From: an uncultured bacterium
Lineage (GTDB): Bacteria > JACRDZ01
Length of the DNA: 64,000 bases
NCBI GenBank assembly: GCA_964457585.1
Contig: CAYWFU010000007.1
Span: 5,275 to 69,274, forward strand
Reading direction: 5' to 3'
Under the pieces are notes generated by a model. That model saw nothing but the letters and a program-made list of their open reading frames with translations, was not told the origin of the DNA and did no database searches. Positions 25,607-48,921 of the stretch are shown here, one piece after another. How positions within the stretch are numbered: the first letter of the stretch is position 1; each line of letters begins with the position of its first letter. Made by a program: the position numbers and the translations under genes.

Positions 25607-26995
25607 ATGAGAATTCTTTTAATAGCTTATGATAATGATTCACATATTTCGGTTTTTCCTCTCGGTTTGGCATATATAGCAGCTGTTTGTAGAAATGCAG
25701 GTCATGATGTGGTGATTTACAATCAAGATATTCATCACTGGTCTGAATCACATTTATTGGAGTTTTTGAATAAAAATAAGTTCAATGTAGTTGGGTTGGG
25801 TGTTGTAGGTGGTTATTATCAATATAGAAAATTGCTAAAAATATCAGGAGCAATTAATAAAGCAAAGAATAAACCTTTTTACATTATTGGTGGACATTGT
25901 CCCTCTCCCGATCCGGAATACTTTTTGAAAAAGACACAAGCAGATGTTGTAGTAATTGGAGAAGGTGAAAATACGATACTGGACTTGTTAAAAGTGTTAG
26001 AAGAGAAAAAAGATATATCATCTGTTGATGGAATTGCGTTTATGAAGGATGGAAGATGTTTTCAAACACCTAGACGTGCACTAATACAAGATATAGATAA
26101 TATTCCCCACCCTGCATGGGATTTATTTCCAATGGAGCACTATGTTTTATTGCGAGAAGCAAATGCCAAAAAAACCGAACGTAGTATGCATGTCTTATCA
26201 GGCAGAGGATGTATTTTTAAATGCAATTTTTGTTATAGAATGGATGAAGGTTACAGAGCAAGGTCTTCCGACGCTATAATAGAAGAAATAAGGAAATTAC
26301 AAAAAGAATATTCTATTTCATATATCGACTTCCTAGATGAACTTTTTATGGTTTCAGAAAAAAGGACAATCGAATTATGTGAGAGCTTTATTAAATCAAA
26401 GATTAAATTTAATTGGTTTTGTAGTGGGAGATTAAATTTTGCCAAGACAGATGTTCTTAAACTTATGAAAGATGCAGGATGTGTGTTTATTAATTATGGA
26501 ATTGAGTCATTAGATGAAAATGCTCTACGTGTTATGAATAAAGCTCTTACTGTTAAACAAATTATTACGGGTATTGAAAATACATTATCAGTTGGAATAA
26601 GCCCGGGTTTAAATATTATATGGGGAAATATTGGAGAAACAATTGAATCATTAAAGATGGGAGTTGATTTTTTATTAAAATATGATGACCATGCACAAAT
26701 GAGAACAATCAGGCCTGTAACACCATATCCAGGATCTCCGCTTTATTATTATGCTATTGAAAAGGGTCTATTGAAAGACTGTAAAGATTTTTATGAAAAT
26801 AAGCATATTAATTCTGATTTATTAGCAGTTAATTTTACCAATTTGACTGATGACGAATTCCATAAGGCATTATTTGAAGCAAATAAAATACTTATAAATA
26901 AGTACTATGATTCTCAAAACAAAAAAGTAATCGAAAATGCATGTAAGCTATATTTTGATAAGGATGTCTCATTCAGAGGGTTTAGACAGACTTGA
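25607..26995 (+). CDS. B12-binding-domain radical SAM enzyme (class B), paralogue 1
   Basis: N-terminal cobalamin-binding Rossmann-like domain (ILLIAY...GLGVVGG...IIGGHCPS), then SGRGCIFKCNFCYR CxxxCxxC. Confidence 0.8.
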   Translation: MRILLIAYDNDSHISVFPLGLAYIAAVCRNAGHDVVIYNQDIHHWSESHLLEFLNKNKFNVVGLGVVGGYYQYRKLLKISGAINKAKNKPFYIIGGHCPSPDPEYFLKKTQADVVVIGEGENTILDLLKVLEEKKDISSVDGIAFMKDGRCFQTPRRALIQDIDNIPHPAWDLFPMEHYVLLREANAKKTERSMHVLSGRGCIFKCNFCYRMDEGYRARSSDAIIEEIRKLQKEYSISYIDFLDELFMVSEKRTIELCESFIKSKIKFNWFCSGRLNFAKTDVLKLMKDAGCVFINYGIESLDENALRVMNKALTVKQIITGIENTLSVGISPGLNIIWGNIGETIESLKMGVDFLLKYDDHAQMRTIRPVTPYPGSPLYYYAIEKGLLKDCKDFYENKHINSDLLAVNFTNLTDDEFHKALFEANKILINKYYDSQNKKVIENACKLYFDKDVSFRGFRQT

Positions 26996-27027
26996 ATTTA
27001 GGTATAGGAATTTGAAACGCTCGATAA

Positions 27028-27055
27028 GTAGAGACGCAAAATTTTGCGTCTCTAC
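27028..27055. terminator. perfect 10-bp-stem hairpin gtagagacgc-aaaatttt-gcgtctctac, 33 bp after the stop at 26995
   Basis: Read directly from the sequence. The identical 28-mer recurs at 53954-53981, where it is followed by a T-run. Confidence 0.5.
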
Positions 27056-27129
27056 ATGAAATTTTTGTAGTTGCCTGATTTATCAGGCTTAATTTAATAT
27101 TCGAATATTTGTGAGAGGTAAATAGTAAG

Positions 27130-28341
27130 ATGGAAAAAAATATTATATTTTTTGTTATCCAATCACTTAATGATGATTATGCAAGGAAGTTTGGTTTTGA
27201 TTTACTCAAAAAAAGAGGATTTGATATATATATTTTTAATCTCTTTAATTGGATTTTCAAAAATGCCCAGGAGAAATTTCCACAACACAATAAGCTGGAA
27301 CCAATTAACGACATCAAACAGGTAAAAATTTGTAATCAAGAAGAACTATATAATGCTTTGCGTAATATAAAAGGATGGAAAGTGGTATTTTTATCTACCC
27401 CAGTGACGCCAGTCCTACTTAAAACCTTACAAAAATTGGATATTCCTTATATAATATATCCTTCTTGGGGATGTGTGCATGGAGTCCAACAAAAGAGATT
27501 TTTATTGTTGAGGGTATATAATGCTATTTCAGAGTTGTTTACATCTCCTTTGAATAGAATGCTCGCATTTGTAATACATAAGAGAACAGAATATAGTATA
27601 AAAAAATATCCTCCTACCTATACTATTACAATGTTTAAGAAAGATAATACAATAGATTTAGAAAGAACGAAAGTTATTCTTAATCATGCCTTTGATTACG
27701 ATCGCTATCTTCAAAATAAAGATAAGCCAAGACCAAAATATATTTTTGCAGGAGATTATATTTTATTATTACCTAATCATACTTGGCCTATTCATGATTA
27801 TTTAGTAGTCAAAGGAATGATAGGTAAAAGTGCAGTAACCAAAGAAGAATATCAAATTTTGATTAATCATGCATTAGACAATATTGAGAAATTAACAGGG
27901 AAAAAAATAATTATTGCAGGATATCCTAATGCGACTAAAGATGAAGATATATATGAAGGAAGACATTTTGTTCTTGGTGGAGATACGGAACAATTGGTCA
28001 AATATTCTTCCGGCGTCATGGGGCACCATACAAGCGCGTTTAATTTTGCCATAATACATAATAAACCAATACGCTTGATTAATTTTAGAATATTAAAAAA
28101 TGATAAACATTTTGATAAATCGATGAAACTTTATGAGAATGTACTTAGAACTGAAAGCAAGTATGTTGATACTTTTGAAGATTGCCATAAGCTAGTGGAA
28201 GAGGGTATGTTTGTCTATAATCGGGAATTATATAGTGAATATATGAGAAAATATGTTATTTCAGAAGATGTTGCTGCACTTCCGTTAAAGCTATACTGGG
28301 ATAGAGTGGCTGATGCGCTTGATGCTGATATAGAGGCATAA
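27130..28341 (+). CDS. hypothetical protein (possible novel GT-B-like transferase)
   Basis: 403-aa ORF with good coding character and no motif I can assign; flanked by two B12-radical-SAM genes. Confidence 0.3.
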   Translation: MEKNIIFFVIQSLNDDYARKFGFDLLKKRGFDIYIFNLFNWIFKNAQEKFPQHNKLEPINDIKQVKICNQEELYNALRNIKGWKVVFLSTPVTPVLLKTLQKLDIPYIIYPSWGCVHGVQQKRFLLLRVYNAISELFTSPLNRMLAFVIHKRTEYSIKKYPPTYTITMFKKDNTIDLERTKVILNHAFDYDRYLQNKDKPRPKYIFAGDYILLLPNHTWPIHDYLVVKGMIGKSAVTKEEYQILINHALDNIEKLTGKKIIIAGYPNATKDEDIYEGRHFVLGGDTEQLVKYSSGVMGHHTSAFNFAIIHNKPIRLINFRILKNDKHFDKSMKLYENVLRTESKYVDTFEDCHKLVEEGMFVYNRELYSEYMRKYVISEDVAALPLKLYWDRVADALDADIEA

Positions 28342-28351: not shown

Positions 28352-30166
28352 ATGTCAGATATCGTATTTATACAATTACCCCTTTGGGGGATTGGTGTCC
28401 CGCCTCTCGGCACAGCTTTGCTGAAAAGTTATTTAAAACAGCATGGTGTGACATCTACAATATTCGATGTGAATATTCATGCTTATTCTATAAGAGGTGA
28501 AAGATTTGAAGATTATTGGGATGTGAAAAATGGGTGGAATCATGTAAGCAGCGAAGAGAAAATGGTTGAATTTTACAATAAATATAGAGCCCTATTTTCA
28601 TTTTATATAGATAAAATTGAAAAAATTAATCCACGTATTGTTGGGCTGACTATTTATTACTCTAATATGATACTTTCAAAAATATTTATCGAAGAGCTTA
28701 AAAGTAAATGTCCATTAATTAAAATTATTTTAGGCGGACCACATGCCACGGAGTTTAGTAAAGATGAACTTCTTTCATCTCCGTCAGTTGATGCTGTCAG
28801 CTTAGGTGAAGGCGAAAAAGCAATACTTGCATATTATAATGAAGTTCTTAACGAAAAGAACGAAAGCTTACCGGGCATTGCATACAAAAAAAATAATTCT
28901 GTAATCGAAGCAAAACCCATAGAATATATTAAAAATTTAGATGATCTTCCATTCCCTGATTTTGATGATTTTAATTTGTCTTTATATTTCACAGGGAGAT
29001 ATGTTTATCTACCGAGTTATATTTCAAGAGGCTGTATTAATAAATGTATTTATTGTACAGAAAGAAGCTTCATGAAGCAGTTTCGTTTTAGATCTGCTAA
29101 AAGAGTTGTTGATGAATTTGAATATTTTTTAAAGAAATATCCGGCAGTAAAAGGAATTCGAATGTGCGATAGCATAACAAACGCAAGCATTCCAATGCTT
29201 AATGAATTTTGTGATCTGATGATAGAAAAAAAGATACCTTTGAGCTGGAGTATGGAAAATGCCGCAATTCGAAAAGAAATGCGCACACCTCTTTATAAGA
29301 AACTTAAAAAAGCGGATTGTACATTAATAGGTTATGGAATGGAAACACCTTCTGAAAAATTGTTGAAAAACATTGGGAAAACACTTGCGCAAGGTGTTGA
29401 TATAGAAAAAGTATTAAAAGAAGGAAAAAAATCAGGAATACATATTAGTGTGAATATTATGTTCGGCCTTCCGGGTGAAACAGATGAAGATTTTGAAAAT
29501 CTCCTAAATTTTCTTAAAAAAAATAGAAAGTCTTTAAGTATGGTAAATCCTTCACTTAATCTTTGTGCCTTTTTTCCGGGATCATTAGGTTATAGTACTC
29601 CGGAAAAATATGAAGTTGATATGACTCATGGACCGGATTTTTGGAAGACTATTGATAATAAAAATAATTTCCCTATTAGAATGAATAGATTTGAAAAATT
29701 TATTCTAGAAGCAAAAAAAAATAAACTGGATAATTTTTTGAATGCTACGGAAATTCCAAATAAAAATCAGCGGCTATTTGAATATTATTGCGCAGTGGAA
29801 GATAAGGAAAACGCATTAAAATATTATAATTTGATATCTGAAAAGGATTTAACCGGCGAGTACACAAAACTTTATAATAAACTTAACGGAGATAATAGTT
29901 CTAATGATTTGACATATGTTGTTTCAAATTTTATTCAATCTCTTAATAGTAAAGAAAGAGATGTTGCAATTAGACAATCCTTAAGCTGGCTTATAAGTGA
30001 GTATGAGAAGAAAGGTATATTTTTAGAAAATACATGGTCAAAAGATATTCATCCAATTAAAGCACGTATAAGGGATTTGATTCATAGAGCAATAGGAATT
30101 CATTATATTGAAAAAAGAATTAACGGCGTTCTTGAGATTTTAAAAATTGCAAACAGACAAGAATGA
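28352..30166 (+). CDS. B12-binding-domain radical SAM enzyme, paralogue 2 (long form, 604 aa)
   Basis: VFIQLPLWGIGVPPLG..., ILGGPHAT B12 domain; ISRGCINKCIYCTE cluster motif; extra ~150-aa C-terminal extension. Confidence 0.8.
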   Translation: MSDIVFIQLPLWGIGVPPLGTALLKSYLKQHGVTSTIFDVNIHAYSIRGERFEDYWDVKNGWNHVSSEEKMVEFYNKYRALFSFYIDKIEKINPRIVGLTIYYSNMILSKIFIEELKSKCPLIKIILGGPHATEFSKDELLSSPSVDAVSLGEGEKAILAYYNEVLNEKNESLPGIAYKKNNSVIEAKPIEYIKNLDDLPFPDFDDFNLSLYFTGRYVYLPSYISRGCINKCIYCTERSFMKQFRFRSAKRVVDEFEYFLKKYPAVKGIRMCDSITNASIPMLNEFCDLMIEKKIPLSWSMENAAIRKEMRTPLYKKLKKADCTLIGYGMETPSEKLLKNIGKTLAQGVDIEKVLKEGKKSGIHISVNIMFGLPGETDEDFENLLNFLKKNRKSLSMVNPSLNLCAFFPGSLGYSTPEKYEVDMTHGPDFWKTIDNKNNFPIRMNRFEKFILEAKKNKLDNFLNATEIPNKNQRLFEYYCAVEDKENALKYYNLISEKDLTGEYTKLYNKLNGDNSSNDLTYVVSNFIQSLNSKERDVAIRQSLSWLISEYEKKGIFLENTWSKDIHPIKARIRDLIHRAIGIHYIEKRINGVLEILKIANRQE

Positions 30167-31404
30167 ATAAATTAAAAAAAATACTTATCTATACAGATGT
30201 TCCGTATTTTGCAGGATGTGAAAATGTTTTAGAGAATATTGTTTCATATACAAAAATAAATACTGAATTTGAAATTGTTTTTTGTTATAGAAGAAGTCAT
30301 CAATACACTTATGATTTAAAAAATAGATCAATAAATGTTCCTATATTTCCTGTCTTTGTACTTTCAAACGATCCGATTTTTTCTTTTTTAAAAAATATAT
30401 TCGGAACAGGTTTATTATATCGTCTTGCCAAATTGCCTTTTTCTATAATAGAAAGAAGCTTTGTACTTTCCATAGTAAATTTTTTTATTCTATATAGACT
30501 TGTCTGCAAACATGCACCGGATATTGTACATATTAATAATGGCGGATACCCGGGTGCGGCAACATGCAGAGTTATGGCTTTATCTGCAAAAAAGGCGGGT
30601 ATTAAAAAAATAATATTTACTGTAAACAATATTGCCTGTCCACAAACAGGAATAATTGATAAACTTTTAGATAAAGCTATAGATGCACGAGTTAACTATT
30701 TTACAACTGCATCGCATGCAGCGTCTAATCAACTTACAATATCTAGAGGTTTTTATAATGATAAATTAAAAGTTATAGCAAATACAATTTTATTTGATGG
30801 GGAAAAGTTGAAATTTACACCCAGGCTAAGAAAAGAATTTAGTATTCCCAAAGATGTAAAGATTATAGGATCTGTTGGCTTATTAACAAAAAGAAAAGGC
30901 TATCATGTTCTGATTGAAGCGGCTAAACAAATTGTAACTTATTCAAATTGGTGCATATTCATTTTTGGAGAAGGAGAAGAACGTGAAATTCTCAATGAAA
31001 TGATAAAAAAAAATAATTTATCAGATAGAATTTTTTTACCGGGATTTCGTTCTAATATTATGGATTATGTATTGGATTTTGATGTATTTGTGCTTCCTTC
31101 AACAAATAATGAAGATTTACCGAATGTTATTAATGAAGCTATGCTACTGGGAAAGCCTGTAATTGGAACCATGGTTGCTGGTATTCCTGAACAAATTGAC
31201 GATGGTGTAACAGGTTACCTTGTAAAGCCCCAAGACGAGAAAGAATTAAGTGAAGCATTAGCAAAAGTTACACAAATGAGTTATAATCAACTTGAAAACA
31301 TGGGGAAATCAAGTAAAAATAAATATTTGAATCAATTTTCATATTGTAAATCAATGGATAAATATTATACCTTATATAAGAGTTTAGCTTTAATTGTACA
31401 ATAA
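30163..31404 (+). CDS. glycosyltransferase family 4 (GT-B, group 1)
   Basis: C-terminal domain FVLPS...E.LPNVINEAMLLGKPVIGTMVAGIPEQIDDGVTGYLV, the EX7E-type GT4 signature. Confidence 0.8.
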   Translation: MNKLKKILIYTDVPYFAGCENVLENIVSYTKINTEFEIVFCYRRSHQYTYDLKNRSINVPIFPVFVLSNDPIFSFLKNIFGTGLLYRLAKLPFSIIERSFVLSIVNFFILYRLVCKHAPDIVHINNGGYPGAATCRVMALSAKKAGIKKIIFTVNNIACPQTGIIDKLLDKAIDARVNYFTTASHAASNQLTISRGFYNDKLKVIANTILFDGEKLKFTPRLRKEFSIPKDVKIIGSVGLLTKRKGYHVLIEAAKQIVTYSNWCIFIFGEGEEREILNEMIKKNNLSDRIFLPGFRSNIMDYVLDFDVFVLPSTNNEDLPNVINEAMLLGKPVIGTMVAGIPEQIDDGVTGYLVKPQDEKELSEALAKVTQMSYNQLENMGKSSKNKYLNQFSYCKSMDKYYTLYKSLALIVQ

Positions 31405-33181: not shown

Positions 33182-34123
33182 ATGCCAGGGAATTGTACTT
33201 GTAGCCTAGAAAATAAAAGTGAATTTGTAACGATATATAAACATCTCACAAAAGAAGATGAACAACATCTGGGTAAAATGGAGATACATCGTTGTTTGAA
33301 TTGTTCATTAGCATTTGCAAATCCCCAGCCCGATATATCAAAACTCGAATATTATTACGACAAAATATATAGGAAAGAAGGAAGACCAAATTTTATAAGC
33401 AATCCGGAAAAGACTGGGCCGGGTAATCTGGAAAAATCACAGTATGCTTATATTGCTAAATACGTAAATTTATCCAATATAAATAGTATTCTTGATATTG
33501 GTGCTGGTTATGGATTTTTTTTACGTGAAATAAGAAAAATGCATTCTTCCATAGAATTATTTTTTGATGATTTAGATATTAAATCTACACAATATTTAGA
33601 AAAATATAATATAAATAGGTACGATCATAAAATAAATAATAGTATAGATTTAATCATTTCTTCACATAATTTGGAACATTTTACTACACCTGATGCTTTT
33701 TTTGAAAAAGTTAAATTTATATTAAAACCAAAAGGTTATCTATTTATTGAAGTTCCAAACGATTCTTTTGATAGTAAAAAAAGTGAAGAAAAATCGCATT
33801 ACAGCCCTCATTTATTGTTTTTTTCAAAAAAATCACTTCAATTTTTTATGGAAAAACATGGTTTTAGAATAATTAATATTGAAACATGCGGATGGCCAAT
33901 TAATACCGAAATTGAGCTTCTTAAATCTGAAATGAAAGTATATAAAGATCAAGATATTGTTAAAAGTTTGCACAATAAATTTGCAAGTCTGATTCCGACA
34001 AATTTAAAGGAATTTATACGAAGAAAAATTTTAAATAAAAGTAATATTGACCTAACCTTGGAAAATTTCAATTATGGTGGTGATAGGCGCGCTATTAGAG
34101 CAATAGCTGTCTTTGATAAATAG
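33182..34123 (+). CDS. class I SAM methyltransferase with N-terminal zinc-ribbon
   Basis: N-terminal CTCS...HRCLNCSLAF (CxC...CxxC), then LDIGAGYGFF motif I. Confidence 0.65.
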   Translation: MPGNCTCSLENKSEFVTIYKHLTKEDEQHLGKMEIHRCLNCSLAFANPQPDISKLEYYYDKIYRKEGRPNFISNPEKTGPGNLEKSQYAYIAKYVNLSNINSILDIGAGYGFFLREIRKMHSSIELFFDDLDIKSTQYLEKYNINRYDHKINNSIDLIISSHNLEHFTTPDAFFEKVKFILKPKGYLFIEVPNDSFDSKKSEEKSHYSPHLLFFSKKSLQFFMEKHGFRIINIETCGWPINTEIELLKSEMKVYKDQDIVKSLHNKFASLIPTNLKEFIRRKILNKSNIDLTLENFNYGGDRRAIRAIAVFDK

Positions 34124-37730: not shown

Positions 37731-37734
37731 ACAT

Positions 37735-38856
37735 ATGAGAAAATTGATACGACTTTCGAAATCTTGTATTGGTGAAGCAGAAAAAAAAGCTGTTATGAAT
37801 GTTTTAGATCGAGAACTTTTAGGTATGGGAGCCGAAGTTCAAAAATTCGAATCTGCTTTAAAGGATTTTTTTGAGCGTCAAGCTGTATGTGTTGTAAATG
37901 GAACTTCTGCTTTACATCTGGCTGTTCAAGCATGCGGTATTGGTTTTGAAGATGAAGTATTACTTCCTTCTCTCACTTATATTGCATCTTTTCAAGCTAT
38001 TTCCGCAACAAATGCAACACCAGTGGCATGTGATATTGATCCTATAACTTTAACTCTTGACTGGCGTGATGCGGAAAAACGTTTAACTAAAAAAACTAAA
38101 GCTATAATGCCGGTTCATTTTACCGGTGGAGTGGGAGATTTAGAAGGAATATACGAATTTGCCAAAAAAAATGGTTTGCGTGTTATAGAAGATGCTGCTC
38201 ATGCTTTTGGATCACAATATAAAGGTAAAAAAGTCGGCAGTTTTGGTGATATTGCCTGCTTTAGTTTTGATGGAATTAAAAATATTACATCAGGAGAAGG
38301 CGGATGCGTAGTTAGCGAAGATGCTGCAGTTTTACAGCGCACTAAAGATGCCCGTTTATTAGGTGTTGAAAATGACACAGAAAAACGTTTTAATGCTCAG
38401 CGCAGTTGGGATTTTGATGTTACCAGGCAGGGTTGGCGATACCATATGAGCAACATTATGGCGGCAATTGGAATTGAACAATTTCGCCGATTACCGGAGT
38501 TCATTGCAAAGAGGCAGGAACTGGCTAGATATTACGACGAGCAATTTGCAAAAAGCATTTCTATAAAAACTATTCCTCATAACTATTCTTTAATATCGCC
38601 TCATATATATATTATACGTATAAAGGGATTAAAAGATCGCATTAAATTACAATCGCGACTTTTGGAATTAGGAATAGAAACGGGAGTTCATTACAAACCT
38701 AATCATCTGTTGACTAAATATAAAGAAATTGTAAAATTACCTTTAACAGTAACAGAAAACGTTTATCAAGAAATACTTACTCTACCCTTACACTTCGATC
38801 TAAACAAGTTGGATATCGATTATATATGCAAATCTTTGCTTGAGGCTGTATCATGA
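37735..38856 (+). CDS. DegT-family PLP aminotransferase/dehydrase (CDP-sugar pathway)
   Basis: Start moved to ATG 37735, residue 32 of the track ORF, just after the rfbF stop. MNVLDRELLGMGAEVQKFE ... DAAHAFGS ... SFDGIKNITSGEGG, the DegT signature. Confidence 0.8.
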   Translation: MRKLIRLSKSCIGEAEKKAVMNVLDRELLGMGAEVQKFESALKDFFERQAVCVVNGTSALHLAVQACGIGFEDEVLLPSLTYIASFQAISATNATPVACDIDPITLTLDWRDAEKRLTKKTKAIMPVHFTGGVGDLEGIYEFAKKNGLRVIEDAAHAFGSQYKGKKVGSFGDIACFSFDGIKNITSGEGGCVVSEDAAVLQRTKDARLLGVENDTEKRFNAQRSWDFDVTRQGWRYHMSNIMAAIGIEQFRRLPEFIAKRQELARYYDEQFAKSISIKTIPHNYSLISPHIYIIRIKGLKDRIKLQSRLLELGIETGVHYKPNHLLTKYKEIVKLPLTVTENVYQEILTLPLHFDLNKLDIDYICKSLLEAVS

Positions 38857-39843: not shown

Positions 39844-40959
39844 ATGAAAAAATATAAAATATTCATTAATGGTATTGCTGCTCGACGGGGTGGCGGTGTA
39901 ACTTATCTCAATATTTTATTATTTTTTTTATTAGAACGTGAGGACGTAGATGTAACAATTTATGGCTTTTCTCGTATAAATTCCGAACTACGAAATAATA
40001 AAAAACTTAAAATTATTGATCTAACTTTTGTTCATAGAAATATTTTTTTTCGAATATTGCTTGAAAAGATATTCTTCCCTTTTGTAATTTGGCTTAAAGA
40101 ATTTGACATAGCTTTTTTCCCGAATGGAATGGTTACAGGATATGTTCCATCATCAACAAAATCTATAACAATGTTTCAAAATATGCTGCCCTTTAGTGAC
40201 AGAGACATAGCTAAATTTCCTATTGGGTATGATAAATTTCGTTATTGGTTTTTAAAACAAGCATATTTGAAAAGTTATAAAAAAGCTGATCATGTAATTT
40301 TTATATCCGAATATGCGCAGTATGTAATTACTCAATTTGTACCGGAAATTAAAATGAGATCTTCAGTCATTCCCCATGGTATTCCGGAGGTATTCCGAAA
40401 ACAGAAAAAAGTAGACACATCGTTGCCTATGTTATATGTGTCGATTTATAATGAATACAAACATCAGATCGAAATAGTAAAAGGGCTGGCTCTTTATAAA
40501 AAAAAGTATGGAACTGCACCGCGTTTACAATTAGCAGGATTTGCTAAAAAAGAATATTTAAAAAAACTTAAACAAGTAATTCATGACTTGAATCTTGATA
40601 AACATGTAGATATACTAGGCCCAATACTGTATGAGGATATTCCTGATTTATATCAAAATTCAGGGTGGGTGATATTTGGCTCAACTTGTGAGAATTGTCC
40701 GACAATTTTATTAGAGGCAATGGGAAGCGGAAGTCCGATTATTTGTTCATCATATCAACCAATGCCTGAATTTTTAAAAGATGCGGGTGTATATTTTGAT
40801 CCTGAAAAGCCCGAGTCCTTTGCCAATGCATTGGAAATTGCTATAAGTTATTCACAGAAAGAAGTTCAGGACATTGGAAATAAGACCTATAACATTGCAT
40901 TGAAGTATACATGTAAAAAAAATGTTAATGAAACATGGAAAGTTTTTTCTGGAGAATAA
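39844..40959 (+). CDS. glycosyltransferase family 4
   Basis: C-terminal FGSTCENCPTILLEAMGSGSPIICSS (GT4 E...E motif region). Confidence 0.75.
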   Translation: MKKYKIFINGIAARRGGGVTYLNILLFFLLEREDVDVTIYGFSRINSELRNNKKLKIIDLTFVHRNIFFRILLEKIFFPFVIWLKEFDIAFFPNGMVTGYVPSSTKSITMFQNMLPFSDRDIAKFPIGYDKFRYWFLKQAYLKSYKKADHVIFISEYAQYVITQFVPEIKMRSSVIPHGIPEVFRKQKKVDTSLPMLYVSIYNEYKHQIEIVKGLALYKKKYGTAPRLQLAGFAKKEYLKKLKQVIHDLNLDKHVDILGPILYEDIPDLYQNSGWVIFGSTCENCPTILLEAMGSGSPIICSSYQPMPEFLKDAGVYFDPEKPESFANALEIAISYSQKEVQDIGNKTYNIALKYTCKKNVNETWKVFSGE

Positions 40960-40987: not shown

Positions 40988-42430
40988 TTGAACATATTGT
41001 TCATATATTCATTGCAAGATGCGAGATCTTCTCAAAAACCTTTACAGAATCAAGGGCAGATGCAGTTTGGTATATCATATATATCAGCTTTTTTAAAAAA
41101 ACATCGACATAATACAAAATTACTTGTTTTAAACAGAGAAGCAAAAAAAGAAAAAATAGCAGCGGTAATTAGAGAATTTAAACCGAGGTTGATATGCTTT
41201 TCTACGGTAACAATTGAGTTTGAATTTATAACTCAAATTGCTAAAGATATTAAGAAAAATTTTCCTGATATTTTTTTGCTGATTGGAGGAGTTCATGTTT
41301 CTTTAAATCCTTCGGAAAAGATGCTTGAAGTTTTTGATGCATTATGTATCGGAGAAGGAGAGTATCCAACTTTTGAATTAATCGAACAATTAGAAAAAGG
41401 GTTTTTCCCTTCAAAAATTTTAAATCTTTGGATAAAAAATAAATCAGAAATAGAAAAAAATAAAACACGACCTTTTTACCAAAATTTGGATGAATTGCCT
41501 TTTCCTGATAGAGATATATGGATGGATTGGATACAAGAACCAACAACAGGGTATACTATTCTTCTTGGACGAGGGTGCCCTTTTATTTGTGCTTATTGTT
41601 CAAATCATGCTATAAGAAGATTAAGTGACGGAAAATATGTTAGACAGAGATCGTCTGAAAATATTATCGGTGAATTGAAAGAACTAACAGATAAGATTCC
41701 TTCCATAAAAAATATTTATCTTGAAGTTGAAACTTTTGGCGCAAATAAAAAGTGGGCTATTGATTTATGTGAAAAATTAAGAGATTTTAATAAAAACAAC
41801 AAAAAAGAAATTTTTTTTGGAACGAATTTACGAGTGACACCTAATAAAGATTATGATCAACTTTTTGCAGAGTTGAAAAAAAGCAATTTTACTTTTATTA
41901 ATATTGGGCTAGAATCCGGTAGTGAAAGAGTTCGGCGAGAAGTGCTGAAAAGAAATTATTCAAATGAAGATATTATTAAAGCTGTTTCATCCGGTAGAAA
42001 ACATGGATTGAAAATCAAATTTTTTAATTTAATTGGTATTCCTGGTGAAACTTATAATGATTTTATGGAAACCGTGAAAATGAATAGAATTTGTTTGCCT
42101 GACACGAATTATTTATCTATATTTTTCCCATATCCGGGAACCTCATTACATAAGTTATGTATAGAGCAAGGACTAATAACAAATAAACTTGATACTCAAA
42201 TGGAAAGAAGAAGGTCAACATTAAATTTACCTGACTTTAGTAAAAAACAGATTCAAACGTGTTTTGTATGGTTTGAATACTATGCGTTTAAAGGATGTAA
42301 GCCGATATATAAAATATTATCCAAAGTTATGGTGAATAAAATTCATTCTAATTATTATTTGAATTTATGTTATAGAAGGTTAACATCGTTAACTTTTTTT
42401 AAAATTTTGAAAAAAAGTTTACAATCATAA
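40988..42430 (+). CDS. B12-binding-domain radical SAM enzyme, paralogue 3
   Basis: LLIGGVHVS, GEGE B12-domain features; GRGCPFICAYCSNHA cluster motif; TTG start with AGGAG 8 nt upstream. Confidence 0.8.
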   Translation: MNILFIYSLQDARSSQKPLQNQGQMQFGISYISAFLKKHRHNTKLLVLNREAKKEKIAAVIREFKPRLICFSTVTIEFEFITQIAKDIKKNFPDIFLLIGGVHVSLNPSEKMLEVFDALCIGEGEYPTFELIEQLEKGFFPSKILNLWIKNKSEIEKNKTRPFYQNLDELPFPDRDIWMDWIQEPTTGYTILLGRGCPFICAYCSNHAIRRLSDGKYVRQRSSENIIGELKELTDKIPSIKNIYLEVETFGANKKWAIDLCEKLRDFNKNNKKEIFFGTNLRVTPNKDYDQLFAELKKSNFTFINIGLESGSERVRREVLKRNYSNEDIIKAVSSGRKHGLKIKFFNLIGIPGETYNDFMETVKMNRICLPDTNYLSIFFPYPGTSLHKLCIEQGLITNKLDTQMERRRSTLNLPDFSKKQIQTCFVWFEYYAFKGCKPIYKILSKVMVNKIHSNYYLNLCYRRLTSLTFFKILKKSLQS

Positions 42431-42475: not shown

Positions 42476-44200
42476 ATGAAATCTTTTTTTAAAAAATTTA
42501 TATTCATTTTGGGTGATGAAAAATCCAAACTAAAATATCTAACAGCGCTTTTTTTGTTATCATCATTATTAGATGTTCTTGGTATAGCATTAATAGGTCC
42601 ATTTTTTAATAAGCTCAATAATAGCAATACAGGAATTACATTAAATATAGCATCTAATTCTACAAAAGAATTTATTGCATGTATGATTATTTTTGTGTTT
42701 GTTTTTAAAGGAATAGTTGCATATTTTGTTAATAAAAAAATACTTTATTATTCATATAATCAACAAGGTATTTTAATTAAAAAAATAATGAAGTCATACC
42801 AGAAATGCCCATTAGAAAAAATAATATCAATAAATACAGCAGAGGTTATTAACATAATAAATAATTTTACAAATACTTTTGCCAGCAGTGTTTTAATGAA
42901 TATATTGTCTTTGGCTGCAAATTTATTAATAGTTATCGCAATCATTTTATTTTTGGCAATACAAAATATTATGATTATTTCTATTTTGGTTGCTTTAATG
43001 GTTATTTCTACTCTATTTTATGATTTCTTTTTTAAGAAGAGCTTAAAAAAGACAGGTGTTATAGCCGCACAAGCTCAGGAAAATATTATAAAGTGGGTTA
43101 ATCAATCATTAGGAGGATTTAAAGAAATAAATCTTTTAAATGTAGATAAATTTTTTTATGAAAAAGTATCAAAACAAACTGATGATTATGCTGAGTCGAA
43201 TTCCATTGCCAATGCATTACAGCTTATTCCGCGTTATGTAATTGAAGATACAGTAATTATATTTGTAGTATCAATTTTAATAATTCAATATAGAACCTCA
43301 GGAAATATTAATGAGATAATGGCTTTATTAAGTATGTATGCAGTTAGCGCAATTAGACTAATGCCTGCTGTAAATGAATCTATAAGATCAATTAGTAAAA
43401 TGCGATTTTCATTACCTGTTATTGATAAATTATATGATGTTTTACAAAATTTAGAATTTGAAGAATCTTTTCAATCTAATAAAGATAGTTCATTATTTAA
43501 AAATTTTAATGAAGTTAAATTACTTGATGTCTCATATAAATATCCCGAGACCAAGAATTACGCATTAGATAATGTCAGTATTGCTATACAAAAAGGCCAA
43601 TCAATAGGTATAATAGGAAAATCAGGATCAGGAAAAACAACACTGGTAAATATTATTCTCGGATTACTTGCTATTCAAAAAGGCTCTCTTGTTGTAGATG
43701 AAATTGTTATAAATGATAAAAAAAAAATGTATGACTGGAGAAAACATTTGGCTTATATTCCTCAGGATATATTTTTGCTTGATGATTCAATTGCGCGAAA
43801 TATAGCCTTTGGTATTAATGATTCTGATTATTCCGAATCGCAGATATTGCATGCGCTTAAAGTTGCTCATTTATATGATTTTGTAAATACTTTACCGAAT
43901 AAATTGGATACAATGGTTGGAGAACGCGGTGTGAAATTATCCGGTGGACAAAGACAAAGAATAGCAATAGCCAGAGCAATTTATCATGATAGAAATATAA
44001 TTGTGATGGACGAGGCTACGTCTGCGCTCGATAACGAAACGGAAAAAACAATAGTTGATGCAATAGAAGGATTAAAAGGTGATAGAACGCTAATCGTTAT
44101 CGCTCATAGACATACAACGCTAAAAAATTGTGATTATATATATAAAATGGAGGATGGGTCAATTGTTGCTCATGGCAAATACGACTCAATTTGTAAATGA
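42476..44200 (+). CDS. ABC exporter, fused permease + ATPase (MsbA-like)
   Basis: Six N-terminal TM helices; Walker A GKSGSGKTT, signature LSGGQRQRIAIARA, Walker B IIVMDEATSALD. Confidence 0.85.
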   Translation: MKSFFKKFIFILGDEKSKLKYLTALFLLSSLLDVLGIALIGPFFNKLNNSNTGITLNIASNSTKEFIACMIIFVFVFKGIVAYFVNKKILYYSYNQQGILIKKIMKSYQKCPLEKIISINTAEVINIINNFTNTFASSVLMNILSLAANLLIVIAIILFLAIQNIMIISILVALMVISTLFYDFFFKKSLKKTGVIAAQAQENIIKWVNQSLGGFKEINLLNVDKFFYEKVSKQTDDYAESNSIANALQLIPRYVIEDTVIIFVVSILIIQYRTSGNINEIMALLSMYAVSAIRLMPAVNESIRSISKMRFSLPVIDKLYDVLQNLEFEESFQSNKDSSLFKNFNEVKLLDVSYKYPETKNYALDNVSIAIQKGQSIGIIGKSGSGKTTLVNIILGLLAIQKGSLVVDEIVINDKKKMYDWRKHLAYIPQDIFLLDDSIARNIAFGINDSDYSESQILHALKVAHLYDFVNTLPNKLDTMVGERGVKLSGGQRQRIAIARAIYHDRNIIVMDEATSALDNETEKTIVDAIEGLKGDRTLIVIAHRHTTLKNCDYIYKMEDGSIVAHGKYDSICK

Positions 44201-46329
44201 AACAATTAATTCAATCTTATAAAACTGGGGAACTTGGATTATTTGAAATTCCAGAACCTATATGCGGCAAAAATGGAATATTGATAAATACCACTGCTTC
44301 TCTTGTTTCTGCTGGTACAGAAAAAATGATAGTGGATATTGCAAAAAAATCTCTTCTTGGAAAAGCTAAGGCACGTCCTGACCTTGTTAAACAAGTAATT
44401 GAAAAAATGAAACAAGAAGGGATAATGAACACCCTTGAAAAAGTATTTAACAAACTTGACACTCCGATCCCTCTTGGGTATTCTTGTGCTGGCAATGTGA
44501 TGGAAATTGGCAAAAATATATCCGGTATTTCAATTGGTGACAGAGTAGCTTGCGGCGGAGCAGGTTATGCAAATCATAGCGAGGTAAATTATATACCGAA
44601 GAATTTATTTGTAAAAGTACCTGATAATGTTGATGATATTGGAGCCTCTTTTGTTACTGTGGGAGCAATTGCCCTGCAAGGTGTTAGACAGGCTTGTCCA
44701 GCTATTGGTGAGATTATTGCAGTAATAGGGCTTGGTCTTATTGGACAATTAACCATTCAGATTCTTAAAGCTAATGGTTGCAAGGTACTTGGAATTGACA
44801 TTGATGACAATAAATTGAAACTTGCCAAAGAACTTGGGGCTGATGTGGTTTGCAAATCAGAAGAGATTATTTCTACTGCCTTGCAATTCAGTAATGGTTA
44901 TGGTGTAGATATCAGTATTATTACTGCTTCTACTACTAGCAATCAACCTATTATAGATGCTGGTGAAATTACAAGGATTAAAGGAAAAGTTGTTGTAGTA
45001 GGAATGGTTGGTATGGATATACCACGAAATATTTATTATAAAAAAGAACTTGATGTCCGACTTTCTATGGCTTACGGACCGGGACGATATGATACTAATT
45101 ATGAACAAAAAGGGATAGATTACCCGTATGGTTATGTTAGGTGGACAGAGCAACGAAATTTTATAGCTTTTCTTGATTTGATATCATCAAAAAGTATCAA
45201 TATTAAGTCTTTAATAACTCACAGATTTAAATTTTATGATGCAATGAATGCATATCAACTAATTCAAGATAATCTCGAACCATATCTTACAATAGTTTTT
45301 GAGTATCCTCACTCTGTAAACCAGGATGGACGATTAAAAGGACGTACAGTTATTCTCAATTCAAAAATATTTTCATACAGTCGACAAGATGTTGTAGTTG
45401 GTTTTATAGGTGCCGGCAATTATGCAAGTCTAATTCTTCTGCCAGCTATAAAAAAAGCAGGGGTCAAGCTTAAGACTATTGCATCGTTAACAGGTATTTC
45501 TGGAACAAAGCTTGGTCAAAAATTTGGTTTTGAAAAAAGCACTACAAGCATAAATGAAATTATTGATAATCCTGAGATTAATACTGTTATTATAGCAACG
45601 CGTCACGATTCGCATGCAGACCTGGTTCTATCAGCATTAGGTGCGGGGAAACATGTTTTTGTAGAGAAGCCTTTATGTATAAGCATAGATGAACTCGACA
45701 AGATTGAAGCTGCTTACTCAAAAATCAGAAATCAAAATTTAAAACCACCGTTATTGATGGTTGGATTCAATCGACGTTTTTCTTTGCTAATTCAAAAAAT
45801 GAAAACTTTACTGGATGGAATGAAAGAACCGAAAAGTATGGTTATGATGGTGAATGCAGGTAAAATACCTTTTGAGCATTGGACTCAAGATCCAAAGGTC
45901 GGAGGTGGTAGGATAATTGGCGAAGCATGTCATTTCATTGATCTTTTGATGTATTTAACCATGAGTAAGGTACATAAGGTCTCGATTGATAAGATTAAGG
46001 GTGTCTCCGATACCGTCAGTATACAGATGTCCTTTGTAGACGGATCAATTGCTACAATTCATTATTTTGCTAACGGTTGTAAGGATTTCCCAAAAGAACG
46101 GCTTGAAATCTTTTGTGGTGAAAAAATTTTACAACTCGACAATTTTAGAACATTGCGGGGATGGGGCTGGAAAAATTTTACTCGTAATAAGTTGTGGTCT
46201 CAAGACAAGGGGCAAGTTAACAGCGTTAAAGCTTTTTTTGAAGCTATACATGCAGGTGGCGAACCACCTATACCGATTGAAGAAATATTTGATGTAACGC
46301 GGATTACTTTGGATTTATCGCAACAATAA
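44197..46329 (+). CDS. bi-domain oxidoreductase: N-terminal MDR zinc-type alcohol dehydrogenase fused to C-terminal Gfo/Idh/MocA oxidoreductase
   Basis: N-terminal half: GLGLIGQLTIQILKANGCKV Rossmann of MDR. C-terminal half: VVVGFIGAGNYASLILLPAI, then EKPLCIS (GFO/IDH/MocA EKP motif). Confidence 0.75.
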   Translation: MKQLIQSYKTGELGLFEIPEPICGKNGILINTTASLVSAGTEKMIVDIAKKSLLGKAKARPDLVKQVIEKMKQEGIMNTLEKVFNKLDTPIPLGYSCAGNVMEIGKNISGISIGDRVACGGAGYANHSEVNYIPKNLFVKVPDNVDDIGASFVTVGAIALQGVRQACPAIGEIIAVIGLGLIGQLTIQILKANGCKVLGIDIDDNKLKLAKELGADVVCKSEEIISTALQFSNGYGVDISIITASTTSNQPIIDAGEITRIKGKVVVVGMVGMDIPRNIYYKKELDVRLSMAYGPGRYDTNYEQKGIDYPYGYVRWTEQRNFIAFLDLISSKSINIKSLITHRFKFYDAMNAYQLIQDNLEPYLTIVFEYPHSVNQDGRLKGRTVILNSKIFSYSRQDVVVGFIGAGNYASLILLPAIKKAGVKLKTIASLTGISGTKLGQKFGFEKSTTSINEIIDNPEINTVIIATRHDSHADLVLSALGAGKHVFVEKPLCISIDELDKIEAAYSKIRNQNLKPPLLMVGFNRRFSLLIQKMKTLLDGMKEPKSMVMMVNAGKIPFEHWTQDPKVGGGRIIGEACHFIDLLMYLTMSKVHKVSIDKIKGVSDTVSIQMSFVDGSIATIHYFANGCKDFPKERLEIFCGEKILQLDNFRTLRGWGWKNFTRNKLWSQDKGQVNSVKAFFEAIHAGGEPPIPIEEIFDVTRITLDLSQQ

Positions 46330-46343
46330 GGAGATGGTATGAT

Positions 46344-46424: not shown

Positions 46425-46442
46425 TATCCCTAAGGAGAATAT

Positions 46443-47414
46443 TTGAAAAAAATAGATTATATAGAACGTATTTTTTCTGCTTATATTTTGAGAAAAAATA
46501 GTCAACTAACTTTTTGGCATGAAAATCCGGAGATCAATACTGACGCAGATACACAAGGGATAGGGCAGTATTATATGACTTTTGCCAAAAAAGCATGTTA
46601 TCCGGGTCCGTTTGATTCCATGGGTGTGCCGATGCTTAATTATCATGGGAAAGTGGGTAAACAGTATAACCCTATTGCTATAGCGCATTTTGCACTGGCT
46701 AACTATAATTTAGCAAAGAAAACAAATGACAAATTATATTATGATCGTTTTTATAAAAATGCTCAATGGTTACTGGATAATCTTGCAATAAATTCAAAGG
46801 GATGTTATGTTTGGTACCATCATTTTGATTTCGAGTATTTTCGTCCATTACTAGCTCCATGGTTTTCAGGGCTAGCTCAAGGGCAGGGATTATCAGTACT
46901 TGTCAGGACTTATGTCGAAACTAAGGATAATAGATATATCCATGCAGCGGATGAGGTTTTTAGGTCGCTTGATATAGTTATTGATGATGGTGGTGTGCTA
47001 TTTAAGGATGATCAAAAACGCTTATGGATTGAAGAGTATATCGTAACCCCACCGACTCACATATTAAATGGATTTATATGGGCATTATGGGGTATTTATG
47101 ACTATTACTTGCTTACCAGATCTAATAAAGCTCTTCTTCTTTACGAATCATGTGTTGAGACATTGTCAGAAAATCTTTATCGTTTTGATGCTGGTTTTTG
47201 GTCGTACTATGAGCTAACACCACAGAGAATCAAATCGCTTGCAAGTCCGTACTATCATAGTCTTCATATAGTTCAACTGAGAATTATGCATAAGTTGACA
47301 AAGAAAAAGATTTTTTCCGAATATGCAGATAAATGGGAAAAATACAGTCAATTTTTCATTTTTAAAGCTTTGGCAATATTATATAAAATTTGTTTTAAAT
47401 TTATTTATTATTAA
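46443..47414 (+). CDS. hypothetical protein (possibly D-glucuronyl C5-epimerase C-terminal-like alpha-toroid)
   Basis: TTG start with AAGGAG 5 nt upstream; Trp/Tyr-rich repeats. Family assignment is only a weak impression. Confidence 0.3.
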   Translation: MKKIDYIERIFSAYILRKNSQLTFWHENPEINTDADTQGIGQYYMTFAKKACYPGPFDSMGVPMLNYHGKVGKQYNPIAIAHFALANYNLAKKTNDKLYYDRFYKNAQWLLDNLAINSKGCYVWYHHFDFEYFRPLLAPWFSGLAQGQGLSVLVRTYVETKDNRYIHAADEVFRSLDIVIDDGGVLFKDDQKRLWIEEYIVTPPTHILNGFIWALWGIYDYYLLTRSNKALLLYESCVETLSENLYRFDAGFWSYYELTPQRIKSLASPYYHSLHIVQLRIMHKLTKKKIFSEYADKWEKYSQFFIFKALAILYKICFKFIYY

Positions 47415-47427
47415 ATGAGGTTATAAA

Positions 47428-48921
47428 ATGAGAATTTTACTGATAGATCCTCCTACTAATTGTTTTACCGGGCTTATGAAAAGGGGCTATCCAATTGGAT
47501 TATGCATGCTTGCTGCTGTAGCTAAAAATGAAGGAATCCAGGATGTAAGTGTTTATGATGTAGATAAGTCTTTGCCTCCTACATATGGTCTGAATTTCAG
47601 CAATCAAAAACAAAATATGGCTCGTTTTCTCGATGGAGTAAATAATCTTGATCATCCTGTTTGGAAAAGCATAAGCCAAACACTTGATTCCTTTAAACCG
47701 GATATTGTTGGTATAACCACAATGACGATACAGTATGCTGCGGCAATGCGTGTTGCTCAAACAGTTAAATCATGGGACAAAAAGTGTCCTGTTATTGTGG
47801 GAGGCGCTCATACCAGCGTAATGCCCATCAGTACAATTGAATGGCCTTATATTGATATGATAGTCAAAGGAGAGGGAGAGGAAGCTTTTAGGCAAATTAT
47901 TCAAAGATTAAAAGATGGGCAGACAGATATGTCTGATATACATGGAGTTATAACCAAAAGTAATGCTTCTATGACAAATATACCGCCAATTGAAATTTCT
48001 GATTTAGATATTCTTCCTATCCCGGCAAGAGAAATGCTTATGCATAAAGAGCGCTATACTCCTGAAGATTTGGCATTGATTTTGACTTCACGCGGTTGCC
48101 CTTATCATTGCAGTTATTGCAGTAATTTTTCAAGAAAAACGCGTTTTAGATCAATCGAAAATGTAATTAATGAAATTGAGATTGTTAAGAATAAATATAA
48201 CGCTTCGCAATTTATGTTTAAGGATGATTCTTTTTCTTTAAGACGTAACCGAGTTGAAGAATTTTGTCGAAAACTTCATGAAAAGAAATTGGATATAAAT
48301 TGGGAGTGTACAACGCGTCTTGACTTGTTAGATGATAGTCTTGTTAAAATGATGATGTCCGCAGGGTGTAATCGTATAGGTGTAGGTGTTGAATCCGGCG
48401 ATGAACAAATGCTTCAAATCTATAGTAAGAGACTTACAAAGGATCAGATACGAAAAGGAGCAAAAATATTAAATGCCAATAAAATGTTTTGGACTGCTTA
48501 TTTTATGATGGGATTGCCAATGGAAAGTGAACAGCAGATTTATAGTACCATTGGTTTTATGAAAGAAATAAAACCTTCATATGCAGCAATAGGTATTTAT
48601 AAACCTTATCCTGGCACAAAACTTTTTGATATGGCTGCTGATCTGGGATTGGTAGATGCTAATGTGCCGAATGAACACTTTTTAAATACAAATCCAGTGG
48701 ACTATTTTTTCAAAGATGCAGGTAAAAGATGCGCTTATATCTCTCTAGACAAACTGACAGAATTAACCTGTTTTATGGAACAAGAATTTGAAAAGTATAA
48801 TAAAAAATTTTCAAAAATATTTAAACGAGCAATTTCAAGATATAAATTGTATTTATCTGACTATAAGAGCTTTACTACGGATATAAAAAGGATTATTAGA
48901 TGGTATATTCCTAAAACATAG
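47428..48921 (+). CDS. B12-binding-domain radical SAM enzyme, paralogue 4
   Basis: MRILLIDPP... (same N-terminus style as paralogue 1), VIVGGAHTS, GEGEE; SRGCPYHCSYCSN cluster motif. Confidence 0.8.
   Translation: MRILLIDPPTNCFTGLMKRGYPIGLCMLAAVAKNEGIQDVSVYDVDKSLPPTYGLNFSNQKQNMARFLDGVNNLDHPVWKSISQTLDSFKPDIVGITTMTIQYAAAMRVAQTVKSWDKKCPVIVGGAHTSVMPISTIEWPYIDMIVKGEGEEAFRQIIQRLKDGQTDMSDIHGVITKSNASMTNIPPIEISDLDILPIPAREMLMHKERYTPEDLALILTSRGCPYHCSYCSNFSRKTRFRSIENVINEIEIVKNKYNASQFMFKDDSFSLRRNRVEEFCRKLHEKKLDINWECTTRLDLLDDSLVKMMMSAGCNRIGVGVESGDEQMLQIYSKRLTKDQIRKGAKILNANKMFWTAYFMMGLPMESEQQIYSTIGFMKEIKPSYAAIGIYKPYPGTKLFDMAADLGLVDANVPNEHFLNTNPVDYFFKDAGKRCAYISLDKLTELTCFMEQEFEKYNKKFSKIFKRAISRYKLYLSDYKSFTTDIKRIIRWYIPKT

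Follow-up and report, generated by a model that had tools for sequence, protein, structure and literature searches.

Four families of B12-binding-domain radical SAM enzymes in a bacterial surface-glycan locus as probable glycan-tailoring enzymes

Class-B radical S-adenosylmethionine (SAM) enzymes are known from pathways for antibiotics, cofactors, lipids and ribosomally synthesized and post-translationally modified peptides (RiPPs). GenK and GenD1 of the gentamicin pathway and MoeK5 of the moenomycin pathway are sugar C-methyltransferases of the cobalamin-dependent radical SAM type; they modify sugar carbons of intermediates that are already glycosylated, and for MoeK5 a lipid-linked saccharide has been proposed as the substrate, in a setting beside glycosyltransferases. 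HpnJ is a hopanoid-associated B12 radical SAM enzyme that goes together with the glycosyltransferase HpnI and the deacetylase HpnK; its reaction has only been proposed. Here four enzymes of this class, RS1 to RS4, are described, which are encoded in a surface-glycan locus of an uncultured bacterium, within a stretch of 64,000 nucleotides (nt) referred to as the window (GenBank assembly GCA_964457585.1, contig CAYWFU010000007.1, positions 5,275 to 69,274, forward strand). The four enzymes very probably serve in glycan tailoring.

GenK, GenD1 and MoeK5 share, by description, the two-domain class-B architecture with the RS enzymes, but they belong to actinomycete antibiotic pathways, whereas the RS enzymes occur in surface-glycan and nonulosonic-acid loci of anaerobes, and no NCBIfam model for GenK, GenD1 or MoeK5 matched. 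HpnJ (TIGR03471) shares the logic of a glycosyltransferase and a radical SAM enzyme working on a lipid-anchored sugar, and differs in that there are no hopanoid genes in the window. The solved methylases QCMT/MgmA (Protein Data Bank [PDB] entry: 9CCB), TokK (7KDX), CysS (9N1B) and TsrM (6WTE) have the same domain order and fold as the RS enzymes, QCMT being the top fold match for RS1; they differ in that the sequence identity is only 15-20% and that none of them acts on a glycan, the substrates being a protein glutamine, carbapenams, a carrier-bound polyketide unit and tryptophan. AprD4 of apramycin biosynthesis is a radical SAM enzyme with a sugar substrate and a partner reductase. It dehydrates sugar 1,2-diols and does not bind cobalamin (PMC12931638). 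RS2 has no AprD4 match, and among solved structures it comes closest in sequence to the true methylases CysS and TokK. In the literature searched, no radical SAM enzyme was linked to nonulosonic (pseudaminic or legionaminic) acid, O-antigen, flagellin-glycan or Leptospira rfb loci, and no class-B enzyme had been given a role in bacterial O-antigen, capsule, S-layer or flagellin glycans; a surface-glycan and nonulosonic-acid tailoring setting for class-B enzymes appears undescribed in that literature.

The four enzymes are encoded by intact open reading frames (ORFs), all on the + strand (lengths in amino acids, aa):

25607-26995, + strand: RS1, radical SAM enzyme of class-B architecture, 462 aa (PF02310, PF04055; CIFKCNFC at residue 202)
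28352-30166, + strand: RS2, class-B radical SAM enzyme, 604 aa, with a helical C-terminal extension of ~200 aa (PF02310, PF04055)
40988-42430, + strand: RS3, class-B radical SAM enzyme, 480 aa (PF02310, PF04055)
47428-48921, + strand: RS4, radical SAM enzyme of class-B architecture, 497 aa (PF02310, PF04055)

These lengths agree with those of the closest homologues (462 aa for RS1, 605-621 aa for RS2, 484-501 aa for RS3 and ~495 aa for RS4). The initial annotation, made from the sequence alone, had seen in all four an N-terminal B12-binding domain followed by a CxxxCxxC radical SAM core, and the hidden Markov model check bears this out, with all four above both Pfam thresholds. Against gathering scores of 32.1 bits for the B12-binding family PF02310 and 29.5 bits for Radical_SAM PF04055, the scores of RS1, RS2, RS3 and RS4 are 66.4, 45.6, 63.4 and 64.3 bits for PF02310 and 68.6, 66.2, 85.8 and 76.9 bits for PF04055. 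The PF02310 match covers positions 12-120 of the 121 profile positions in RS1 and RS4, 15-116 in RS3 and 44-118 in RS2, and it precedes the radical SAM core in each protein, as in class B. The CxxxCxxC motif, starting at residues 202, 228, 197 and 224, respectively, together with the PF04055 match, places RS1-RS4 in the radical SAM superfamily.

The class-B fold is also present in the AlphaFold models, which were made for RS1 and RS4 from family alignments. In these models (pLDDT 89.6 for RS1 and 93.1 for RS4) a five-stranded, Rossmann-like alpha/beta N-terminal domain is followed by a beta/alpha core with the partial TIM barrel of class B. When the models are compared with the PDB by Foldseek, the top matches all have class-B architecture (AprD4, TsrM, QCMT/MgmA, OxsB, CysS and TokK), with E-values of 1e-15 to 1e-23. 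The N-terminal domain is strongly conserved inside each family (in the RS1 family 38 positions are invariant within residues 1-140), and the GGxH and GEGE motifs are common to RS1-RS4.

The pairwise identity among RS1-RS4 is only 24-27%, which rules out a recent duplication, and RS1-RS4 are therefore best described, from these identities, as four separate, anciently diverged families. The term paralogous, used in the initial annotation, is thus appropriate at the superfamily level and not in the sense of a recent expansion, since each of the four families is individually conserved. The initial annotation had named a common occurrence of related genes outside glycan loci as a finding that would refute it; the opposite was found, and for each of RS1, RS2, RS3 and RS4 orthologues are located in glycan loci or are fused to glycosyltransferases.

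The RS1 family is tied to nonulosonic-acid genes. The best 120 orthologues listed are all 67-78% identical to RS1 and nearly all 462 aa long, a conservation that is very strong for a tailoring enzyme, and they come from Planctomycetota (Kuenenia, Brocadiaceae), Nitrospirae, Omnitrophica, WOR-1, Proteobacteria and Firmicutes (Desulfoscipio, Desulfitobacterium, Desulfosporosinus and Syntrophomonas). NeuB and CMP-transferase genes lie within 10 kb of the RS1 orthologue in four of five related loci (L004, L090, L091 and L094), as well as in the window. Two of the RS1 loci are Firmicute flagellin-glycosylation islands. In Desulfoscipio geothermicus the orthologue comes right behind the flagellin genes and is flanked by a gene for a Maf-like flagellin glycosyltransferase and by a full legionaminic-acid operon. 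In a Desulfosporosinus metagenome-assembled genome (MAG), flgM, flgN, flgK, a flagellin gene, fliW and csrA precede a legionaminic-acid operon that starts with the RS1 orthologue. The WOR-1 orthologue has as its neighbours the DegT aminotransferase and dehydratase genes of a NeuB/Epimerase_2/CMP-transferase cluster. In a proteobacterial MAG (L091) the genes after the orthologue encode a short NeuB, a CMP-transferase, a radical SAM protein of the SPASM type and HisH/HisF-like proteins, elements that are all present in the window, and the short NeuB and CMP-transferase genes adjoin the orthologue there. From these neighbourhoods we infer that RS1 belongs to the nonulosonic-acid branch.

The genes next to RS1 vary. 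One protein lies between RS1 and RS2:

27130-28341, + strand: X403, 403-aa protein, no Pfam or NCBIfam match

X403 was considered as a LIC12162-family protein and a conserved RS1 partner, and this was ruled out (hhalign probability 0.2, BLASTP E 0.017). LIC12162-family proteins (PF27859, named for a Leptospira gene) are encoded at 11475-13259 of L006, 7443-9107 of L008 and 7182-9098 of L009, where their genes adjoin RS1 or lie upstream of RS2 orthologues; X403 holds the equivalent upstream region in the window. Judging by the LIC12162 name, Leptospira lipopolysaccharide loci may carry related modules. Upstream of RS1, an imperfect palindrome of ~400 nt (25188-25588) lies within a gap of 460 nt; its arms (~25188-25316 and ~25404-25588) contain runs of ATTGAGC/ATTGACA heptamers, and all eight copies of the 17-mer core that the window contains lie here, with 0.05 expected at random. 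This could be an insertion resembling a miniature inverted-repeat transposable element or a large regulatory hairpin.

RS2 is followed by a glycosyltransferase gene, the start of which overlaps the RS2 stop by 4 nt:

30163-31404, + strand: GT4 glycosyltransferase (Glycos_transf_1, 1.7e-35)

RS2 orthologues are 44-60% identical. Two of the related loci (L008 and L009) keep the order LIC12162-family gene, small methyl-/sulfo-transferase gene, RS2, GT4, and have methyltransferase, DegT, epimerase and GT2 genes downstream of the RS2-GT4 pair, much as in the window. In one RS2-family protein (P0355) the association is covalent, with a GT2 domain fused at the N-terminus.

Such fusions are also found in the RS3 family, which is large, with 2537 cluster representatives at E<=1e-30 in the full HMMER scan. 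The gene directly upstream of RS3 is again that of a glycosyltransferase:

39844-40959, + strand: GT4 glycosyltransferase (Glycos_transf_1, 3.6e-22)

An RS3-family protein that is 53% identical to RS3 (P0365) is fused to a GT2 domain, a protein of 2088 aa (P0366) carries GT4, GT2 and GT4 domains, and one of 1400 aa (P0379) is built similarly. SAM methyltransferase domains are fused to two further members (P0473 and P0456), the latter also having an APH-type kinase domain. A metagenome scan with the single RS3 sequence gave no match, and RS3 loci were obtained when it was repeated from an alignment. In six metagenomic loci with RS3 orthologues of at least 42% identity, the 45 neighbours include 7 GT4, 2 GT2, 7 methyltransferase and 2 UDP-GlcNAc 2-epimerase genes.

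RS4 belongs to a conserved cassette, in which the first gene is that of a fused oxidoreductase combining zinc-dependent alcohol dehydrogenase (ADH) and Gfo/Idh/MocA domains, and the start of the GT4 gene overlaps the RS4 stop codon:

44197-46329, + strand: fused zinc-ADH/Gfo-Idh-MocA oxidoreductase, 710 aa (Pfam)
46443-47414, + strand: protein like the C-terminal domain of D-glucuronyl C5-epimerase, heparosan type (PF06662, 1.1e-50)
48921-50177, + strand: GT4 glycosyltransferase (Pfam)
50128-51249, + strand: UDP-GlcNAc 2-epimerase (PF02350, 8.5e-107), also present in the RS4 cassette of L002

RS4 orthologues are 38-64% identical and occur in many phyla. A Sedimentisphaerales MAG (60% identity) has the identical cassette of ADH/Gfo fusion, C5-epimerase-like gene, RS4 and GT4, and in the MAG SKS1.bin41 (58%) the sole change is a UDP-GlcNAc 2-epimerase gene between the oxidoreductase and C5-epimerase-like genes. 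Among the related loci, L002 and L092 have the ADH/Gfo fusion upstream of the RS4 orthologue, and L012 and L019 have it beside RS3-like genes; the pairing of this fusion with the C5-epimerase-like protein is conserved across phyla. The C5-epimerase-like gene lies directly upstream of the RS4 orthologue in L001, L002 and L092, and a GT4-type gene follows that orthologue in L001, L002, L092 and L093. The RS4-GT4 pair is still kept at 40% identity.

The initial annotation had considered four copies in one cluster highly unusual, and this is not supported. In the Kuenenia stuttgartiensis locus (L006/L007), 20 kb contain four B12-radical-SAM genes together with a plain radical SAM gene, and of 43 fetched related loci of at least 10 kb, among which the RS3-like ones of lower identity were checked as glycan loci only in part, 11 have at least two B12-radical-SAM ORFs and five have at least three. 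Among organisms of this kind such multiplicity is not especially rare. The clustering of the RS genes with glycan genes is, on the evidence of these neighbourhoods, not due to chance, because members of these families are found together, and near glycan genes, in unrelated genomes as well.

With architecture, fold, family conservation and linkage to glycan and glycosyltransferase genes established by the analysis, predictions can be made for substrate level, cobalamin use and reaction type. RS1 would act on a nonulosonic sugar of the legionaminic or pseudaminic type, or on its nucleotide-linked precursor. RS2, RS3 and RS4, each paired with a glycosyltransferase, would modify a sugar after its attachment to a lipid-linked or growing chain; judging by the fusions and overlapping genes, this would be the sugar of the partner transferase. 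In the proposed mechanism the [4Fe-4S] cluster would cleave SAM to give a 5'-deoxyadenosyl radical, which would abstract a hydrogen from an unactivated sugar carbon. A methyl group would then be transferred from methylcobalamin, giving C-methyl or branched sugars. Methylation is taken as the most likely outcome because it is the commonest one for class B, most characterised members of which are methylases (PMC12931638, PMC9204698). As a whole, the best explanation is that of four dedicated glycan-tailoring B12-radical-SAM families with methyl transfer as the most probable reaction, and it is moderately probable; for any given one of the four enzymes, methylation is possible but on the doubtful side.

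Several observations weigh against this assignment. None of the four families has a characterised member; by architecture RS1-RS4 belong to a known superfamily and sub-class, but to no characterised family within it. None of RS1-RS4 reaches an NCBIfam equivalog cut-off: the best model is BchE for RS1 (147 bits, cut-off 481), the RiPP C-methyltransferase model TIGR03975 for RS2 (138 bits, cut-off 282), HpnJ for RS3 (131 bits, cut-off 578) and ApyD for RS4 (176 bits, cut-off 750). For RS1, RS3 and RS4 the top matches include the non-methylases HpnJ and BchE; the scores of RS1, RS2, RS3 and RS4 are 130, 105, 131 and 157 bits for HpnJ (exact cut-off 577.6) and 147, 97, 87 and 153 bits for BchE (TIGR02026, exact cut-off 481.35), and for TIGR03975 (exact cut-off 281.85) the other three score 46-104 bits. 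Among solved structures, AprD4 (PDB entry: 6FD2) is the closest in sequence for RS4 (108 bits), RS1 (66 bits) and RS3 (62 bits), and by fold it ranks first for RS4 (TM-scores 0.69/0.75, full-length) and third for RS1 (0.72/0.73). The three or four ordinary SAM methyltransferases of the locus could themselves account for methyl groups. As regards RS1, the Kuenenia locus is the only one of the five without NeuB within 10 kb, and the RS1 neighbours X403, a 332-aa protein of L004 and the LIC12162-family proteins are mutually non-homologous.

Other chemistry is kept open because AprD4 is the best solved match, because HpnJ and BchE rank high and because RS4 is part of a redox/epimerase cassette. 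It is possible, if unlikely, that some or all of the four enzymes, RS4 and RS3 first, are non-methylases, catalysing 1,2-diol dehydration that leads to deoxygenation (AprD4/AprD3), ring contraction of a hexosamine to a cyclitol (the reaction proposed for HpnJ), or oxidation or cyclisation (BchE). The fused ADH/Gfo protein would then be the redox partner of RS4, as AprD3 is for AprD4, and its constant presence with RS4, together with the C5-epimerase-like protein, is a context of redox chemistry and rearrangement, not of methylation. HpnJ, which comes first in NCBIfam for RS3 and second for RS4 and RS1, also provides, together with HpnI and HpnK (a PIG-L deacetylase), a precedent for a glycosyltransferase and a B12-radical-SAM enzyme on a lipid-bound sugar. 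Yet the scores remain far from these families, with 131.7, 80.0 and 66.4 bits for RS4, RS1 and RS3 against 500 bits for the AprD4 model (NF033070, where RS2 is not listed), and 105-157 against 578 bits for HpnJ. The AprD4 likeness is also confined to the core: its sequence matches start at residues 158-190, past the end of the N-terminal domain, and the NCBIfam AprD4 model likewise aligns to the core alone (for example, RS4 169-420 with model positions 146-405), whereas the N-terminal domains of the RS enzymes pass the B12-binding threshold. The prevalence of methylases among characterised class-B enzymes also argues against this alternative. The fold search was tried for telling methylases from non-methylases and was set aside, since AprD4 and true cobalamin methylases score alike.

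The same precedent makes the fold alone insufficient to show cobalamin binding. In sequence networks, AprD4 and ArsL-like proteins fall among the class-B enzymes although they do not bind cobalamin (PMC12931638), and for RS1 and RS4 the fold search does not tell AprD4 apart from cobalamin-binding enzymes. The N-terminal domains could in that case be relic Rossmann folds, and RS1-RS4 would be plain radical SAM enzymes such as epimerases or dehydrogenases. This is very unlikely in view of the PF02310 scores of 45-66 bits over almost the whole profile, the high conservation of the domain in each family, including GGxH and GEGE, and the matches to TokK, QCMT, CysS and OxsB, which extend into the second half of the N-terminal domain. 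That the four are passengers serving a non-glycan pathway, as the NCBIfam similarities to RiPP (ApyD, TIGR03975), lipid (ladderane, HpnJ/HpnR) and tetrapyrrole (BchE) families might suggest, is extremely improbable, because these matches are far under their cut-offs, no hopanoid, tetrapyrrole/bacteriochlorophyll, lipid or RiPP precursor-peptide genes are found among the Pfam-scanned genes of the window, the orthologue neighbourhoods in other phyla are glycan loci, RS2- and RS3-family members are covalently fused to glycosyltransferases, and all genes of the locus are co-oriented with minimal gaps or overlaps.

The assignment as glycan-tailoring enzymes with methyl transfer as the most probable reaction is consistent with the glycan chemistry of Kuenenia. 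Its locus resembles that of the window in having an RS1 orthologue (75% identical), three more B12-radical-SAM genes, a plain radical SAM gene and methyltransferase, DegT, GT2 and GT4 genes, and differs in that its other three B12-radical-SAM enzymes are only 25-30% identical to RS2-RS4. The S-layer O-glycans of Kuenenia are unusually methylated and contain an unidentified 174-Da unit (PMC5088730), and its nonulosonic-acid variants at m/z 261, 275 and 289 form a previously undescribed 14-Da ladder (bioRxiv 10.1101/2020.12.03.409086). According to the available text of a further preprint, of 2026, Kuenenia CMP-nonulosonic acids carry a free amine and a formyl group and have +14.01 Da variants, and C10 'extended backbone' CMP-ulosonic acids occur in Magnetospirillum, with no enzyme named there for their synthesis (bioRxiv 10.64898/2026.04.20.719630). 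An RS1-type C-methylase would be a plausible candidate source of the +14 Da and C10 species; the authors of that preprint, in the same text, read the +14 Da as O-methylation, which is a further point for the opposing side. In the available text of these Kuenenia and Magnetospirillum glycan papers radical SAM enzymes are not mentioned, and no publication tying the Kuenenia RS genes to glycans was found. The most specific proposal, which is quite unlikely as it stands, is that RS1 would be a nonulosonic-acid C-methyltransferase extending a backbone of the legionaminic/pseudaminic type, for example at the terminal C9 methyl, and making the C10 and +14 Da variants detected by mass spectrometry; RS2-RS4 with their partner glycosyltransferases would represent a general and hitherto unrecognised kind of radical post-glycosylation tailoring of bacterial surface glycans in anaerobes. 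The carbon addition by RS1 would then resemble the building of ethyl groups by TokK and CysS.

The locus around the four genes is predicted to be a single-strand surface-glycan locus of ~53 kb (O-antigen or capsule) of a low-GC diderm bacterium; the GC content of the window is ~30%, and co-oriented + strand ORFs run from ~180 to 53,957. The glycan locus recognised in the initial annotation is confirmed by Pfam, with genes for a Wzi fragment, Wzz, Wzy, a PglK/MsbA-like ATP-binding cassette (ABC) exporter and a WbaP-type initiating transferase (Bac_transf), at least seven GT2/GT4 genes, an NDP-hexose 4,6-dehydratase/aminotransferase set and two ulosonic-acid modules, each with NeuB and a CMP-transferase. 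Nonulosonic-acid, amino-deoxyhexose and uronic-acid-type branches are joined in it. Two of the assembly and export genes are:

42476-44200, + strand: PglK/MsbA-like ABC exporter, candidate flippase for a lipid-linked glycan (ABC_tran, ABC_membrane; NCBIfam PglK 291.8 bits, below the cut-off of 1000)
52587-53957, + strand: WbaP/PglC-type initiating phosphoglycosyl transferase (Bac_transf, 9.4e-70), at the 3' end of the glycan locus

The two ulosonic-acid modules and the fifth radical SAM enzyme, of the SPASM type, the presence of which had been noted correctly, are:

2541-13780, + strand: Pse-like nonulosonic-acid sub-cluster, with PseB-, PseC-, PseF-, PseG-, PseH- and PseI-like genes, a formyltransferase-like gene and a PIG-L deacetylase gene (Pfam)
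7348-8292, + strand: SPASM-type radical SAM enzyme, inside the Pse-like sub-cluster (Radical_SAM 66 bits, SPASM 58 bits)
14655-20652, + strand: second ulosonic-acid module, with genes for a haloacid dehalogenase (HAD) family hydrolase, short NeuB, class-III aminotransferase, AP_endonuc_2 protein, CMP-transferase and short-chain dehydrogenase/reductase (Pfam)

In the second module the HAD-domain protein has 429 aa, the short NeuB, which is without a SAF domain, 276 aa and the class-III aminotransferase 479 aa; the AP_endonuc_2 protein is a xylose-isomerase-like TIM barrel. The SPASM radical SAM gene adjoins HisH/HisF-like amidotransferase genes (7348-9715) within the nonulosonic-acid cluster, an arrangement seen again beside the RS1 orthologue of the proteobacterial MAG (L091, 12195-15975). 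The formyltransferase-like gene (10752-11456) and the PIG-L deacetylase gene (11453-12130) sit between the PseG-like and PseH-like genes. In the available text of the preprint cited above (bioRxiv 10.64898/2026.04.20.719630), such a pairing is credited with the one free amine and the one N-formyl group found on CMP-nonulosonic acids of Kuenenia, and by analogy a similar free-amine/N-formyl nonulosonic acid may be made by the organism of the window.

Four ordinary SAM methyltransferases had been counted in the initial annotation; three of them pass Pfam thresholds, and the fourth has only a weak match below threshold:

13847-14611, + strand: TylF-like SAM O-methyltransferase (PF05711, 26.8 bits, cut-off 23)
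22738-23679, + strand: class-I SAM methyltransferase (Methyltransf_11 and Methyltransf_25)
33182-34123, + strand: class-I SAM methyltransferase (Methyltransf_23, 8.7e-16)
5491-6111: putative SAM methyltransferase (weak match, below the Pfam threshold)

Some further features of the window concern gene limits and neighbours. A nucleotidyltransferase ORF (36966-37730) and the next, DegT ORF (37642-38856) overlap by 89 nt as listed; the true DegT start probably lies further downstream, because the Pfam match starts at residue 42. A gene for a putative endonuclease of the Uma2 family (51324-51911) is located inside the glycan locus, between the UDP-GlcNAc 2-epimerase and GmhA-like SIS genes. Just outside the locus, on the - strand (55945-60120), a protein of 1391 aa is encoded that combines about six Big_5 Ig-like domains with many RCC1 repeats, followed by an ORF of 516 aa (60253-61803) without a family match. 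The RNA feature scan found no cobalamin riboswitch, no other Rfam family and no tRNA in the window.

With no NCBIfam equivalog reached and no linking paper in the literature searched, the suggestion that the chemistry of this locus is probably undescribed stands. The proposal is directly testable, since cultured hosts exist, such as Desulfoscipio geothermicus, and the giant fusions of a B12-radical-SAM module with glycosyltransferase modules (P0366, P0379, P0365 and P0355) or with methyltransferase and kinase domains (P0456) would be good targets for biochemistry. Unusual surface sugars matter for recognition by phages and by the immune system, and for glycoconjugate synthesis. The four conserved families, tied to glycan loci and in two cases fused to glycosyltransferases, point to an uncharted surface-sugar chemistry in anaerobes.

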